A stretch of 17,605 nucleotides of DNA from a virus (lineage: Duplodnaviria; Heunggongvirae; Uroviricota; Caudoviricetes), in the IMG/VR virus record IMGVR_UViG_2675903413_000004, positions 1-17,605 of that record, one strand, 5' to 3'. The notes under the pieces are model-generated. The model was not told where the DNA came from. It did not search any database and saw nothing but the letters and a program-made list of their open reading frames with translations. Below, piece after piece: positions 7,601 through 12,625 of this stretch. Every line of letters starts with the position of its first letter. The stretch's first letter is position 1. A program made the translations under genes and the position numbers.

Positions 7601-8304
7601 GCTTTCCCCTTAATATCCTGCGCCTTAACATCCCAGCCAAAACCTATGGCCTGAAGCTGACGCGCCAGCGCCTTGTCAAATTCATCATCATTCATGCCCA
7701 GAAACACACGAGCAGGAAGATCCACTGTCCAGCTGGTTTTCACGGCTTTATTACTGAGTTTTCGAATCAGCAGCCCCGCCTGGCTGTATGGCATCGTTTT
7801 GGTGATTTCGCCCTGTGTGGGCTTTTTCCATCTCTTACCGGTTTTCACCCGGTACCCCAGCGCCCGTAATTTTTTGGCCTGGGCAGGCGTCGCCATTTTC
7901 CCGGCCTCTGCCTTCCGTGGCTGATTACTGCGGCTGACCTTTACGCGCATTCCGTTTTGTTGCGCGTACCCCACCGTTCCGGCTGGTACCGGCGCTTCCC
8001 CGTTCCGGTATCCACCGCCCTGTAAATAGATCCGCACAGCCTGAATTTCTGGCATTTCACGGATATGCAGCAGCTTTGGCAGGTTGCGCAGCATCTTCCC
8101 TTTGCGTTTTGTCTTACGTCCCGGCCACTTCTGGCCATCCGGGGATTCCTGATTGCGCACATGCCGCTTTGCCGCAGCAATCACGCCATATTTGGCCAGA
8201 CGCCAGATCAGACGCTGCCGTTTTCTCGGCGGCAGCTCCATGCTGGCCAGTGCCTTGCGCAATTCGGCCAGCTGTTTTTTATTCAGCTCGCCACCGGCAA
8301 TCAT
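7597..8304 (-). CDS. Phage virion morphogenesis / tail completion protein (P2 gpS-like) with a long basic C-terminal extension
   Basis: 235 aa; N-terminal region (LAELRKALASM...ESPDGQKW...GYAQQNGMR) fits the PDG..W / YA..Q.G pattern of the virion-morphogenesis (gpS) family as recalled. ATGA overlaps at both ends (8301-8304 and 7597-7600). Confidence 0.5.
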   Translation of the reverse strand: MIAGGELNKKQLAELRKALASMELPPRKRQRLIWRLAKYGVIAAAKRHVRNQESPDGQKWPGRKTKRKGKMLRNLPKLLHIREMPEIQAVRIYLQGGGYRNGEAPVPAGTVGYAQQNGMRVKVSRSNQPRKAEAGKMATPAQAKKLRALGYRVKTGKRWKKPTQGEITKTMPYSQAGLLIRKLSNKAVKTSWTVDLPARVFLGMNDDEFDKALARQLQAIGFGWDVKAQDIKGKA

Positions 8305-8537
8305 TCGCTATCCCCCACCGGCGCACCGGCCTCATCCACGCTGTAAATACTGGCGGTCAGTGCCGTCCAGATTTCAGGCTCAACCAGTGACCAGCGCTCA
8401 CCCCGCCACGGAATAGCCCCGTTTTCGTCCTGCCTGATCACCAGTTCTTCTACCATCGGAACAGTCAGCACCACAGTGGCCACTTCCTCATCCTCCACCG
8501 ACACATCCCAGTCAGGTTCAGCTTCACTCAGCCCCAC
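8301..8537 (-). CDS. Small acidic hypothetical protein, first gene of the late operon (possibly 5'-truncated)
   Basis: 78 aa, very Asp/Glu-rich, GTG start at 8535-8537 directly abutting the junction with the oppositely oriented terminase fragment; stop overlaps the next gene's ATG. Confidence 0.35.
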   Translation of the reverse strand: MGLSEAEPDWDVSVEDEEVATVVLTVPMVEELVIRQDENGAIPWRGERWSLVEPEIWTALTASIYSVDEAGAPVGDSE

Positions 8538-8554
8538 TTCATCCAGTAGTTCCC

Positions 8555-8926
8555 TGTCTGGGAGTAGACGTTACCGGCATTGGCCAGGGTGTTTTTGACA
8601 ACATTCAGCATTTTGCCATGCGCGTGGCCGTCCCTATTCGTTACGACCTGAACACCAAAAATCAACTGGTGCTGAAAGCGGTGGACGTGGTGGAAAGCCA
8701 ACGTATTGAGTGGGATAAAAACCTGAAAGAGATCGCGGCCAGCTTTATGTCTGTGCGCCGAACCACCACACAAAGCGGCAACGCCATGACGTTTGTCGCT
8801 GACCGCAGCCAGGATACTGGCCACGCGGAGGCGTTCTGGGCGATTACCCACGGTCTGCATAACGAACCCCTTAACTATGAAAACAAACCTAAATCCCGCT
8901 GGGGTGTAAGGAAAGAGGCAGCATGA
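8555..8926 (+). pseudogene. 5'-truncated remnant of terminase large (ATPase) subunit gene (gpP-like), C-terminal ~100-120 codons only
   Basis: Frame is open from 8438 to a stop at 8924-8926 that overlaps the portal ATG, but the only ATG (8618) has no SD. Protein-like sequence (..CLGVDVTGIGQGVFDNIQHFA-MRVAV..) begins about 8555 with no start codon. In P2-family phages the gene immediately upstream of the portal is terminase P. Confidence 0.4.
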
Positions 8927-9984
8927 GTAAAAAGAAACGCTTTGTTAAGCGCGACCAGCGCGGCGACAAATCAAAAAAGATGAGCATTATCACATTCGGC
9001 AAACCTGAACCGGTTCTGACTACCGGCACAGATTACCGTGATATCTGGTACGACAATGCCGCCGATCACTTCACCCAGCCGATTGACCGGCTGGCACTCG
9101 CACAGCTGATTAATCTTAACGGTCAGCACGGCGGCATCATTCACGCCCGCAAAAACATGATTGTTTCAGACTACCTGGGGGGCGGGCTTATTCACGACCA
9201 GCTGGAAGCGGCAGCGTTTGACTATATAACCTTTGGGGATATTGCGATTGCCAAAATTCGTAACGGCTGGGGCGACGTGATCGCACTTGAACCCTTGCCC
9301 GGTCTGTATATTCGCCGCCGCAAAGTCAGAGATAACGCCCTGGATAAGCCCGGTGACTACGTGGTGTTACAGGAAGGAGAACCGCAGGTATGGCCAGAAG
9401 AAGATATTATCTTCATCAAAATGTATGACCCACAACAGCATATCTACGGACTGCCGGACTACATCGGCGGTGTGCATTCCGCGTTACTTAACAGTGAAGC
9501 GGTCATTTTCCGACGCCGCTATTACCACAACGGTGCGCACACAGGCGGTATTCTTTATACTCGCGATCCCAGCATGACGGACGAAATGGAGGAAGAAATT
9601 GAACAGCAGCTGCGTGACAGCAAAGGGATCGGTAACTTCTCCACCATCCTTGTAAACATTCCCGGTGGAGACGGCGACGCCATCAAATTCATTGAAATGG
9701 GGGATATTTCCGCGAAGGATGAATTTGCCAACATCAAAAACATCAGCGCCCAGGACATTCTGAACGCGCACCGTTTCCCTGCCGGCCTCGCCGGTATTGT
9801 CCCGCAGAACACTGCCGGACTGGGGGATGTTGAAAAGGCTGAACGCATTTACAAGAAAAGCGAAATTGCCCCCATCCAGCGCCGTTTCATGCTGGCCGTT
9901 AACAACGATCCTGAAATACCGGAAAGGCTACACCTTAACTTTGATTTAAGTTACACAGAATCAACGGATAAGGGTGCGGCATGA
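8923..9984 (+). CDS. Q: Portal protein (P2 gpQ-like)
   Basis: 353 aa starting MSKKKRF... with GAGG SD 5 nt upstream. Long stretches (DYRDIWYD, RLALAQLINLN, HGGI, ARKNMIV, AVIFRRRYYHNGAH, ISAKDEFANIKNISAQD-LNAHRFPAGLAGI-PQNT-GLGD) match the P2 portal as recalled; needs search confirmation. Confidence 0.7.
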   Translation: MSKKKRFVKRDQRGDKSKKMSIITFGKPEPVLTTGTDYRDIWYDNAADHFTQPIDRLALAQLINLNGQHGGIIHARKNMIVSDYLGGGLIHDQLEAAAFDYITFGDIAIAKIRNGWGDVIALEPLPGLYIRRRKVRDNALDKPGDYVVLQEGEPQVWPEEDIIFIKMYDPQQHIYGLPDYIGGVHSALLNSEAVIFRRRYYHNGAHTGGILYTRDPSMTDEMEEEIEQQLRDSKGIGNFSTILVNIPGGDGDAIKFIEMGDISAKDEFANIKNISAQDILNAHRFPAGLAGIVPQNTAGLGDVEKAERIYKKSEIAPIQRRFMLAVNNDPEIPERLHLNFDLSYTESTDKGAA

Positions 9985-10034
9985 GGCGAAAGAGGCTAAA
10001 ATCCAGGCATCATTTAACAGCTGGAGCATGGAAT

Positions 10035-10304
10035 ATGCGAGTTCTGAAAATCGAATGCCCGGAATGCGGCTCAAAGGCTGTTATTCGTAAAACAAACAGG
10101 AAGCACCGGCAGATTGCCGATATTTACTGTGCCTGTTCAGATGTTGAGTGTGGCCACACGTTTGTTATGAATCTGACGTTCTCCCACACTCTCAGCCCCA
10201 GCGCTAAAACGGGTGATGCGATGGTGCAAAAAATACTGAATGCACTTTCACCCGATCAGCGCCAGATGGCATTAGACCTACTGAAAGCGACTCCCGCCGC
10301 CTGA
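10035..10304 (+). CDS. ogr: Ogr/Delta-family zinc-finger late-gene transcriptional activator
   Basis: ORF track 9981..10304; the ATG at 10035 has GGAG 8 nt upstream and places the zinc finger at the N-terminus as in Ogr. Motif CPECG-x20-CACSDVECGHTF matches the Ogr/Delta C-x2-C...C-x4-C-x2-TF signature. The 9981 start (ATGA-coupled to portal stop) is not excluded. Confidence 0.75.
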   Translation: MRVLKIECPECGSKAVIRKTNRKHRQIADIYCACSDVECGHTFVMNLTFSHTLSPSAKTGDAMVQKILNALSPDQRQMALDLLKATPAA

Positions 10305-10484
10305 AATGCCCCCATTCTGGGGGCGTTGCCCTTCCTTTTTAACTATTTCGCGAACCTCTCCCGCAAGCTCTCCAATCCAGGCCAAAGCGATTGTTTTTTC
10401 TCTCTGGTTACTTTCGTAAACATGGGCAATTTTGGCCAATAACTCAATGCGTTCCAGCTGTGCCGACGCCTCCAAAAGATCCAT
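10278..10484 (-). CDS. Hypothetical small protein (68 aa) between replication gene and late activator
   Basis: ATG at 10482-10484 preceded by GGGGG 4 nt upstream; N-terminal 50 residues look helical and protein-like. The 3' end overlaps the ogr stop and the hairpin, so the true end is doubtful. Confidence 0.25.
   Translation of the reverse strand: MDLLEASAQLERIELLAKIAHVYESNQREKTIALAWIGELAGEVREIVKKEGQRPQNGGISGGGSRFQ
10308..10340 (+). terminator. Possible (non-canonical) terminator after the late activator gene
   Basis: Perfect 6-bp GC stem GCCCCC (10308-10313), loop ATTCT, GGGGGC (10319-10324), but the T5 run (10336-10340) is 11 nt downstream rather than adjacent. Confidence 0.3.
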
Positions 10485-10603
10485 TTAGCCCCCACAAGCA
10501 ATAAATAACTGGATATACATACAGTACACCTTAAAGCACGAATTGTGAAATTTAATTTCCTGCCATCTACTGACAAATGAATGCCTTTCACATAATTACA
10601 CCG

Positions 10604-12625
10604 CTATAACCACCCCGGCCACAGTTCCTGCAATGGCTCGTTTTGAGTCTCTTTAAGCCGCCCGTTGCGGTAAATCAGAGCGCCCTGACCAAATCTCAAA
10701 CCACTACCCCGCAAGAGAATGGCTATTTCTTCATCAGAACCATCAAAACCCCGACTGCGTAATTCCAGTTTTAACCGTCTGCGGGTTCCCCCCTCCGTAC
10801 AGTTATTGACAGAACTCCAAGGGGCGGCGTTGCCGCCAGAAAAACCCGCCTCCGCTGGCGCTTCGGCCAACTTCGCAACCTTTTGCCACTTAACCAGACG
10901 GGTGCAAACTTCTGAATCAGGAACCAAAGGAGAATAAACCCCCTGTATGCGCTGCACGTCCTCTGCATACTCGTTGCCCTGTTCCGTAATTTCATAGGCC
11001 AGACGAACAACCAGATCACGGCGGGCAACCAGTGCACCGCCCTGCGCCTGGGTATATGCAGCCCAGTCCCCGACATCAGCAGCGGCCAGAACCGCATCCA
11101 TTCTGCGATCGGTCAGCACCTGATCCCGCAACCGACGCAGCTCACGCCAGACAGTTACCGGCGCACCACCAATCTGCTGAAACTGACGAATACGCCAGCG
11201 TGAAGCCCATGCAGAAACGGACTTAGCCATATCACGCAGGTTTTCGCCGGTTTCTTCGTCATGCTCACCATCCAGCGCAAAACCATCAATATTTTTTGAA
11301 ATGTATTTCGCGATGTAGCCCGTGGCCGAACCTTTGGCGGGATCGATAGCTTCAACATGAAAACGCGCCTTCAGCGCCTTTTCAGATTGCAGTTCTTCAG
11401 AATCGGTAATTCTGGCGTGATAGCAAAGAATATCGCGTACCGTGTCCACGTCATGCGGACGCATAAAAAGCAACATATGCCAGTGCGGTGTCCCGTCATG
11501 GTGAGGCTCAACAACCCGAAACCCAAATACATGAATACCCGCACGCGAGATCGCTGCGCGTGCTTTTGCCCATACGCCGCATAAATAGCGCTGGGTATCC
11601 TGCGGCGTACATCCATCCCATTGCGATACAAAGCCACCTTTGCTGTGCACTGCGTGGAAACGTGATGGCGCGGTGATGGTGTAAAACTCACCGGCCAGCC
11701 CTTCTTCATTGGCCATATCTTCAAACCCTCGCATTCTTACCATTAGTTCACATCGACGGATCGCCGGATTTGCAACGCTGCGGTGCACCATGCTGTCCAG
11801 TGCAATGCGCAGCCCCTCATCATTCAGCAGATCAAACTTTTTAAAGAACTCCAGATTCCGCTTTTTCTGGTCTATCCATTCGTCCAGTGTTTTGCGGGAT
11901 ACATAAGCGCTGGCCGCTTTTTGTACCTGTCCCACCGCGATGGCCATATGTTCGCGCTGCATATCACGCGCACGTTTAAGACGTAGGTACCACCATTCCG
12001 GCGCCATCATGCGCAGTATCCCGGATTCCGCCTTACGCATTTCCAGTTGACCTTCATTGGCCTCATGTTCAGCCCAGTACGGCGGCTGGTTATTCAGCAT
12101 CAGGCAACCCGCGCAAAGATGGCGGTATGATTCCAAGGTGCGGCGATGCAGCTCTCTGGCGTCGTCAGTGCCAGAGTCAAACTGTTCGGTGAAGTCATAA
12201 AGTGACTGGGAAATCCAACCAGATACCTGGCCAGCCAGTTTTTTAAGATCAGGACGGTCTAGTGACGGCAAGCGCTCCAGCGACTTACCAAAAGGAAGAT
12301 CAGCAGCGTCAGCGGCCAGCGAGTAACGCGCAGCCACTTTGCGCAGACGTGGCAATACACTCCCGCCGATAGTCTGGCGCAGGAATGTATTGGCACGGCG
12401 ACGCCCGTCACGACCAGCAAACAGCTTTTCGTAACGACGGCCAAAATACCCGGCTAACCAGTCGGGTATCTCATGAAGGTACTGTGAGCGCCATTCGTAA
12501 TCCTGCGGGTTAACCGCCCACAGGCGGCGCTCAGTGAGCGTGGCGTCTGTAGGTGTACCCGGTGCGAACGTTTCACGCCGCCAGGTATCGACGGCGTGAT
12601 GTTGGCCATTGGCGACAGGAGTCAT
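10604..12625 (-). CDS. Rolling-circle replication initiation protein (P2 gpA / 186 RepA family, HUH endonuclease)
   Basis: 673 aa; HUH-like motif GTPHWHMLLF and catalytic-tyrosine motif GYIAKYISKNIDG; position downstream of the cII-early operon as in P2/186. ATG at 12623-12625. Confidence 0.8.
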   Translation of the reverse strand: MTPVANGQHHAVDTWRRETFAPGTPTDATLTERRLWAVNPQDYEWRSQYLHEIPDWLAGYFGRRYEKLFAGRDGRRRANTFLRQTIGGSVLPRLRKVAARYSLAADAADLPFGKSLERLPSLDRPDLKKLAGQVSGWISQSLYDFTEQFDSGTDDARELHRRTLESYRHLCAGCLMLNNQPPYWAEHEANEGQLEMRKAESGILRMMAPEWWYLRLKRARDMQREHMAIAVGQVQKAASAYVSRKTLDEWIDQKKRNLEFFKKFDLLNDEGLRIALDSMVHRSVANPAIRRCELMVRMRGFEDMANEEGLAGEFYTITAPSRFHAVHSKGGFVSQWDGCTPQDTQRYLCGVWAKARAAISRAGIHVFGFRVVEPHHDGTPHWHMLLFMRPHDVDTVRDILCYHARITDSEELQSEKALKARFHVEAIDPAKGSATGYIAKYISKNIDGFALDGEHDEETGENLRDMAKSVSAWASRWRIRQFQQIGGAPVTVWRELRRLRDQVLTDRRMDAVLAAADVGDWAAYTQAQGGALVARRDLVVRLAYEITEQGNEYAEDVQRIQGVYSPLVPDSEVCTRLVKWQKVAKLAEAPAEAGFSGGNAAPWSSVNNCTEGGTRRRLKLELRSRGFDGSDEEIAILLRGSGLRFGQGALIYRNGRLKETQNEPLQELWPGWL

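Follow-up and report, generated by a model that had tools for sequence, protein, structure and literature searches.

In phage P2 the cohesive-end site (GGCGAGGCGGGGAAAGCAC) lies 167 bp past the portal gene Q (cosL at 1-19 and Q at 187-1221 on the minus strand of the P2 record), in agreement with the initial annotation of the present locus, and ogr is found at 24036-24254, between D and attP. In phage 186, cos and the ogr homologue, B, are placed as in P2; the cos of the P2/186 type is a 19-nt sequence, GGCG(A/T)GGCGGGGAAAGCA(C/T), about 170 bp past the portal gene. HP1 and HP2 follow the plan int-cI-cox-...-rep-..., then leftward Q and P and the O-N-M-L-tail series. In the HP1 record, cosL occupies 1-9, followed by attP (251-694) and int (at 698); a distance of 192 bp separates the end of orf35 from the right end, and Q and P are found at 10.7-13.6 kb. 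A cos beyond the last tail gene, by attP/int, is also given in the literature for the HP1-type organisation (Lavigne et al.). The 16-nt cos annotated in phiO18P adjoins int, at a distance of 200 bp from the end of the last tail gene, and run-off sequencing of PV94 has revealed 16-nt 5' overhangs (PMC3986222). K139 has been reported with terminally redundant ends and not with cos ends (PMC3986222), so the end structure is not uniform across the HP1-like group. The ev phages (ESSI2_ev040, ev015, ev129 and ev239) are plaque-forming temperate coliphages isolated from infant viromes (PMC6969025).

The window, that is, the whole 17,605-nt stretch of DNA that was analysed (IMG/VR record IMGVR_UViG_2675903413_000004), is with high probability a prophage that has suffered deletions and belongs to the HP1-like branch of the P2 family (Peduoviridae), with its cos elsewhere and none lost beside the portal gene. 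It shares 96-98% DNA identity with Escherichia phages ESSI2_ev040, ev015 and ev129, which belong to Quadragintavirus (Peduoviridae), the genus closest to the window, and about 75% with Cronobacter phage ESSI-2. The insertion site of the prophage in E. coli is between mntR and mntS; strain 1919D3 carries a sibling prophage between these two genes that is identical, or nearly so, to the window over the aligned parts. The source contig, 379 kb in length (GCA_001269265.1, CXXP01000012.1), was identified by an exact match to a fusion protein specific to the window and is 100% identical to window positions 1-10984. Tail genes of the HP1 type occur within the window (a DUF2586 sheath, a Phage_HP1_Orf24 tube and DUF2590), and the combination of an HP1-type tail module, including the orf35 homologue, with P2-type head genes is that of the HP1-type organisation, the head genes besides the portal gene being present in the intact siblings only and not in the window element. 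An Rfam scan of the whole window gave no match. The features around the portal gene are:

8923 to 9984, plus strand: complete portal gene, homologue of P2 Q and HP1 orf15 (PHROG 68, E=3e-119; Pfam Phage_portal)
9985 to 10034, plus strand: portal-ogr spacer of 50 bp, in frame with the ATG at 9981 and free of protein constraint
10035 to 10304, plus strand: Ogr/Delta-type zinc-finger gene (89 aa, or 107 aa from the start at 9981; Pfam PF04606)

The portal stop codon (TGA, 9982-9984) overlaps an ATG at 9981-9983 that is in frame with the ogr-like ORF (ATGA, 9981-9984), which can be read directly from the sequence, as it had been in the initial annotation. Such an overlap is by itself statistically unremarkable, since only an A before the TGA is required. 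A second in-frame ATG is located at 10035, with a GGAG upstream at 10023-10026. The encoded protein scored 70.8 bits against the Pfam family Ogr_Delta (PF04606; cut-off 26.3, E=9e-20), and the translation of 10035-10304 places its cysteines at C8, C11, C34 and C39 of the 89-aa form, a C-X2-C-X22-C-X4-C pattern. Its identification as a member of the Ogr/Delta family is solid, and its late-activator function is putative.

Among 26 distinct relatives, the 54-nt stretch 9981-10034 contains three invariant blocks, namely ATGA, TAAAATCC (9997-10004) and GGAG. Synonymous and nonsynonymous changes in these relatives stand at 14:28 in the spacer compared with 90:16 in the ogr core, and the variable sites of the 18-codon extension are distributed over the codon positions as 8/10/9, without third-position bias, which supports a start of the conserved Ogr-like protein at 10035, the one preferred in the initial annotation. 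The GGAG is certainly the Shine-Dalgarno sequence, or ribosome-binding site, for this ATG, and the spacer looks regulatory in nature. The TAAAATCC block may act as a -10 element (TAAAAT), although a consensus scan for sigma-70 promoters called none on the plus strand, and so lends no support to a promoter role for TAAAAT.

Alternatively, the Ogr-like protein might be made mainly as a 107-aa form from the ATG overlapping the portal stop, by translational coupling. All 45 distinct relatives keep a start codon over the portal stop, 41 of them as ATGA, TGATG or TAATG and the other 4 as TTGA; the 18-codon extension is open in every one of them, and the long form is the one annotated in ESSI-2, in YenM_324 and by PGAP. 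The open frame was nevertheless downgraded as an argument, because another frame is also nearly stop-free and the substitutions show no codon bias. Given an extension lacking protein-level constraint, a conserved GGAG at ideal spacing from the ATG at 10035, and Ogr, Delta and B proteins that begin just ahead of their first cysteine, the long form is unlikely to be the main product; a minor portal-coupled 107-aa form may be made as well. With the preferred start at 10035, only 50 bp separate the portal gene from ogr, and no cos was found there, which bears out the initial annotation in that the two genes leave no room for one.

The order of portal and ogr followed by a convergent small ORF and the replication gene A is common to functional relatives. 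A TerL gene, a portal gene and an Ogr-like gene facing the replication gene follow one another in ev040, ev015, ev129, ev239, ESSI-2, Yersinia phage vB_YenM_324 and phiO18P. One small ORF separates the portal gene from the zinc-finger gene in K139 and PV94, and HP1 has an ogr-like ORF, unannotated in its record, at 10635-10447, directly after Q. An Ogr-like gene downstream of the P-Q operon is thus found in HP1, K139, PV94, phiO18P, ESSI-2, the ev phages and YenM_324, as in the window. The portal-ogr junction is identical to the base in plaque-forming phages and is carried by at least 45 distinct relatives. Given the HP1-type tail genes and the order seen in relatives, the tight portal-ogr arrangement is a trait of the HP1-like branch and is not peculiar to the window element.

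The closest phages, ev040, ev015, ev129 and ESSI-2, share the portal-ogr junction, the gene order and the cos motif with the window element; they differ in having complete genomes of about 29-31 kb, the window lacking two blocks of about 5 kb, and in their allele of the Tum-like gene described below, from which that of the window is divergent (43% amino acid identity). phiO18P and PV94 also carry the Ogr-like gene downstream of the portal gene but have different hosts, and their Ogr-like proteins are only about 47-55% identical. With P2 the element shares homologous head genes (Q and P, and O, N, M and L in the intact relatives), the A protein, an Ogr-type activator and the convergence of A and Q. 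It differs from P2 in the positions of cos and ogr, which are exchanged here, in unrelated tail genes and in a cos region of no significant similarity. The initial annotation had been correct that ogr does not occupy the P2 position.

The ends of the relatives' genomes place the terminus between the last tail gene and attP/int. The ESSI-2 record has an identical 15 nt, GCGGGTGCGGTGTAG, at its start and its end; such redundancy might in principle stem from overlapping ends of the assembly. In ev015, ev129 and ev239 the virion assembly ends inside the cos motif, fused to Nextera adapter/index sequence, and such adapter-fused contig ends fix the termini to within a few bases only. The ends of the ev040 record were rejected as termini, this record being permuted, with its true break internal and marked by a 42-nt adapter embedded in the motif at 29624-29665.

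The cohesive end was located in three ways, from the breaks in the virion assemblies, from alignment to the cos of phiO18P and PV94 and from its context in IMG/VR, as the 16-nt GGCGGGTGCGGTGTAG, conserved between the last tail gene and attP/int and presumably a 5' overhang. The annotated 16-nt cos of phiO18P, reverse-complemented (GGCGGGAGCGGATGAG), aligns with it column for column, 12/16 positions being identical and the flanks shared. The 16-nt cohesive end of PV94, whose record breaks exactly between GCA and GGCGGGTGAGGAAGAG, is likewise homologous (12/16), and the flanks and the map position are common to both phages and the window lineage. The 16-mer was found in at least 120 IMG/VR contigs, about 113 of which have a conserved flanking context of about 100 bp; the consensus reads AAACTGAAAAA...GATCCAAAA..GCA, then the motif, then yGCnnTTT..GTC...TTTATTT, and CTGAAA repeats precede the core within the conserved element. 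In about 90 IMG/VR contigs the orf35 homologue lies downstream of the motif on the minus strand, mostly 160-250 bp away, the distance being greater in contigs with extra inserted DNA. In the relatives, cos follows the last tail gene, which is the homologue of HP1 orf35, at a distance of about 190-200 bp in the direction of attP/int. HP1 itself resembles the window element in a cos about 190 bp past orf35, by attP/int, in its HP1-type tail genes and in the ogr-like ORF after Q, but its cohesive end (cosL 1-9) is short and of unrelated sequence.

The core of this lineage cos was sought in the window at up to 3 mismatches and was absent. In the source contig, GGCGGGTGCGGTGTAG is intact, with its full context, at 11199-11214 of L134, a position 215-230 bp left of window base 1; it is flanked by a serine-acetyltransferase moron and by the ORF of 110 aa at the left edge of the window:

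1 to 333, minus strand: moron ORF of 110 aa whose N-terminus resembles a signal peptide, flanked in the source genome by the last tail gene and cos

The window therefore misses cos because its boundary, set at a gene end, cut the site off. From the source contig and the termini of the relatives, the cos of the element lies past the last tail gene, by attP/int, and not by the portal gene, and the overhang would be the same 16 nt. The packaging signal of the window element is retained, not lost. Of the two explanations offered in the initial annotation, the loss of packaging signals is thus contradicted, and the other, a terminus organised differently in this lineage, agrees with the order shared by functional relatives and with genomes ending at the 16-nt motif. 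The same annotation had named two findings that would refute its reading: a shared gene order in functional phages, which was observed, and a conserved cos at 9985-10034 or 10305-10603, which was found in neither interval.

The comparison with the cos regions of P2 and 186 that the initial annotation proposed gave a negative result. No P2/186 cos-like 19-mer was detected at up to 4 mismatches in the whole window, the best match, with 5 mismatches, lying inside a tail gene, and a scan of the window and its relatives with the 19-nt cos at up to 6 mismatches returned chance-level matches inside genes only. When the cos regions of P2 and 186 were aligned with that of the lineage (Smith-Waterman), the scores were no better than those of shuffles, which indicates that P2 and 186 are the wrong comparators.

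In the explanation favoured here, the positions of cos and ogr are swapped in the HP1-like branch relative to P2. The Ogr-type gene, a putative late activator, stands downstream of the terminase-portal operon, immediately so in the window lineage, and the cohesive-end site is found some 190 bp after the orf35 homologue, towards attP/int, so that none is expected by the portal gene. The spacer supplies the ribosome-binding site of ogr and possibly a -10 element, and a likely terminator hairpin together with a predicted SOS-controlled gene of Tum-like type takes up the interval between ogr and A. The features of that interval (10305-10603) and its borders are:

10278 to 10484, minus strand: Tum-like ORF of 68 aa, downstream of A and in the same orientation (PHROG 698, E=4e-22)
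10305 to 10327, plus strand: GC-rich hairpin within the 3' end of the small convergent ORF, with a delayed T-run after it
10507 to 10526, minus strand: LexA (SOS) box in the promoter region of the 68-aa ORF
10604 to 12625, minus strand: replication initiator gene A of the P2 A type, convergent with portal and ogr (Pfam Phage_GPA, E=6e-105)

The hairpin folds at -17.1 kcal/mol (z=-3.2), with terminator-like matches at 10319-10335, and is likely to be the ogr terminator. The 68-aa ORF showed 32% identity to the 186 Tum antirepressor over 38 N-terminal residues, in a search of a seven-sequence database, and 43% to the gp27 proteins of the ev phages. A Pfam search of this ORF gave no match; its length is too short for a DinI domain. 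With up to 3 mismatches allowed, TACTGTATATATATACAGTA matches the window at the LexA box only, 0 matches being expected by chance, and ev040, ESSI-2 and YenM_324 have perfect CTG-N10-CAG boxes at the equivalent position. In having such a box in its promoter and a place downstream of A in A's orientation, the ORF agrees with the 186 Tum type, and the A-ogr interval holds what is predicted to be a LexA-controlled Tum-like gene. In 186, too, A is directly followed, in its own orientation, by a LexA-controlled gene with a similar Tum N-terminus (p95-LexA-tum), and the CI/CII/Apl-type switch is shared; 186 Tum, however, is longer (146 aa), its C-terminal half being DinI-like. A LexA/Tum-like gene is absent between rep and ogr of HP1.

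A cos unlike that of P2 might be concealed within 10305-10603 and overlap the small ORF or its promoter, given that the interval is partly non-coding and that the topology of P2 and 186 runs from A through cos to the oppositely oriented Q. This is highly improbable: 10324-10503 cannot be aligned with ev040 DNA, whereas the true cos core is invariant; the hairpin, the Tum-like ORF and the LexA box with its promoter account for the interval fully; and the virion assemblies of four relatives are continuous across it and break at the other site.

The element is nevertheless defective, as the initial annotation had considered, through two deletions of about 5 kb that are unrelated to cos, and not for the reason then given. 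The corresponding features are:

559/560: deletion junction 1, with a loss of about 5.1 kb relative to ev040 and the 1919D3 prophage
424 to 984/990, spanning junction 1: fusion ORF of 186 aa, present in the source contig
8557/8558: deletion junction 2, about 5 kb lost
8557 to 8926 (ORF 8618-8926), plus strand: 3' remnant of the large terminase gene, the last ~123 codons, matched by Pfam Terminase_6C and PHROG in the C-terminal part only

Junction 1 removed most of the orf35-like gene, two unnamed genes, the tail-fibre assembly and tail-fibre genes and the end of an I-like gene, and it joins the 5' part of that I-like tail gene to the 45 terminal codons of the last tail gene, the one resembling HP1 orf35. 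Junction 2, where the alignment to ESSI2_ev040 jumps from 13283 to 18441, took part of the tail terminator gene, the head completion, TerS, capsid and scaffold genes, the O/P control region and, from TerL, a gene of 1776 nt in the intact sibling prophage, the first ~468 codons. Both junctions are present in the source contig; neither occurs in the 31 matching complete E. coli genomes, and the 40-nt sequence of junction 2 had no match in viral, genome or metagenome contig collections. The remnant prophage measures about 18.8 kb, compared with about 29 kb for the intact sibling, and this deletion mutant cannot make virions. In the divergent O/P control region that the window has lost, the sibling has the dyad TTCGGT-N11-ACCGAA and not the P2-type TGT-N12-ACA; late-promoter dyads of the latter type number three in the window, against four expected by chance, and none is intergenic.

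That cos once stood beside the portal gene as in P2 and was then deleted, the tight portal-ogr junction being a scar of decay, would suit an element so demonstrably decayed and a window with no P2-like cos, but is scarcely credible when plaque-forming phages and the other relatives have the same junction and the lineage cos maps elsewhere, intact in the source contig.

The arrangement of portal and ogr is therefore not a new one; it is the long-known HP1-type organisation, and the finding is an ordinary one. The lack of a cos beside the portal gene is normal in HP1-like members and is not to be taken as decay. Prophage windows trimmed at gene boundaries may lose cos, in this case by 215 bp. 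The lineage cos, defined as a 16-nt core with conserved flanks, is usable for orienting genomes and for spotting satellites that borrow it, and adapter contamination has been flagged in four RefSeq phage records.

Deletion derivatives that retain cos and int are common among IMG/VR contigs, and the same 16-nt cos is found in P4-like satellites that have a P2-family capsid gene of their own; these derivatives and satellites hint at a route from decaying prophage to satellite. The ~18.8-kb prophage itself retains cos, int, the CI/Cox switch, the Tum-like gene, A, ogr, portal and lysis genes. That the doubly deleted prophage travels as a helper-dependent hitch-hiker, with an intact phage of the ESSI2 type inducing and packaging it, is very unlikely in this particular case; helper-dependent mobilisation of cos-retaining remnants is conceivable, and it is the sole mildly novel thread to emerge from this locus.

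Relative to intact relatives, the prophage in the window has undergone two deletions, which have cost it the genes for the tail fibres and baseplate as well as the module encoding the head and terminase.

Window 559/560 and 8557/8558: deletion junctions, about 5 kb lost at each.

A 2-nt microhomology is present at each junction. The source contig (GCA_001269265.1, CXXP01000012.1) carries both, and neither was found in any complete E. coli genome searched.

Within the short spacer between the portal and ogr genes, only two elements are invariant among 26 distinct relatives, namely TAAAATCC (window 9997-10004) and GGAG (10023-10026), while the remainder varies freely. These may represent, respectively, the -10 element and the ribosome-binding site of an ogr-specific transcript. 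A candidate target of the Ogr-like protein itself was recognized in an intact sibling prophage (L004), and an unannotated homologue in HP1.

L004 11495-11540: dyad TTCGGT-N11-ACCGAA in the O/P intergenic region, absent from the window (deleted).
HP1 (NC_001697) 10447-10635, minus strand: Ogr-like zinc-finger ORF, unannotated.

The dyad separates the divergently transcribed scaffold and terminase genes, at the position occupied in P2 by a TGT-N12-ACA Ogr site, and is a putative binding site of the window's Ogr-like protein. The HP1 ORF shows 41% identity to that protein and lies in the 'intergenic' gap immediately 3' of portal gene Q.

Two further small ORFs are encoded on the minus strand of the window.

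Window 10278-10526, minus strand: LexA box and Tum-like ORF of 68 aa, resembling the N-terminus of the antirepressor Tum of phage 186.
Window 1-333, minus strand: ORF of 110 aa whose N-terminus resembles a signal peptide (MKNFIILAVGAAVSFNVFAAEVV...).

The LexA box (10507-10526) precedes the Tum-like ORF, an arrangement which suggests SOS-inducible derepression as in 186. Compared with the ev phages, this ORF is a strongly different allele (43% amino acid identity, DNA not alignable). The 110-aa ORF is an insertion separating the last tail gene from cos; it is lacking in ESSI2_ev040 and is probably a moron.

Nextera adapter and index sequence (e.g., TCGTCGGCAGCGTCAGATGTGTATAAGAGACAG and CTGTCTCTTATACACATCT) is present in the RefSeq/GenBank records of ESSI2_ev040, ev015, ev129 and ev239, the last of which also starts with a chimeric stretch of 113 nt and carries a poly-A tail.

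NC_049393 (ESSI2_ev040) 29624-29665: adapter/index.
NC_049395 (L006), NC_049394 (L007) and NC_049392 (L008), record ends: adapter/index.

This sequence is contamination which, by chance, marks the physical genome ends.

Many IMG/VR proviral contigs are derivatives in which deletions have removed most late genes and spared the cos element and the integrase (examples are L014, L019, L035, L048, L052, L053, L079, L091, L106 and L117); in L035 the 3' half of gene A directly follows cos. The same 16-nt cos core also occurs in nine IMG/VR loci (L012, L021, L044, L047, L072, L073, L109, L110 and L119); there it lies downstream of an Ogr/Delta-like gene, at a distance of about 350-410 bp, and the vicinity contains neither a portal nor an orf35-like gene. 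In the two of these examined, L044 and L072, the gene content is that of a P4-like satellite: AlpA, Ogr/Delta, an integrase of P4 type, a major capsid gene of the P2 family and, assigned by eye, a primase-like protein. These elements are presumably satellites of ESSI2/HP1-type helpers.
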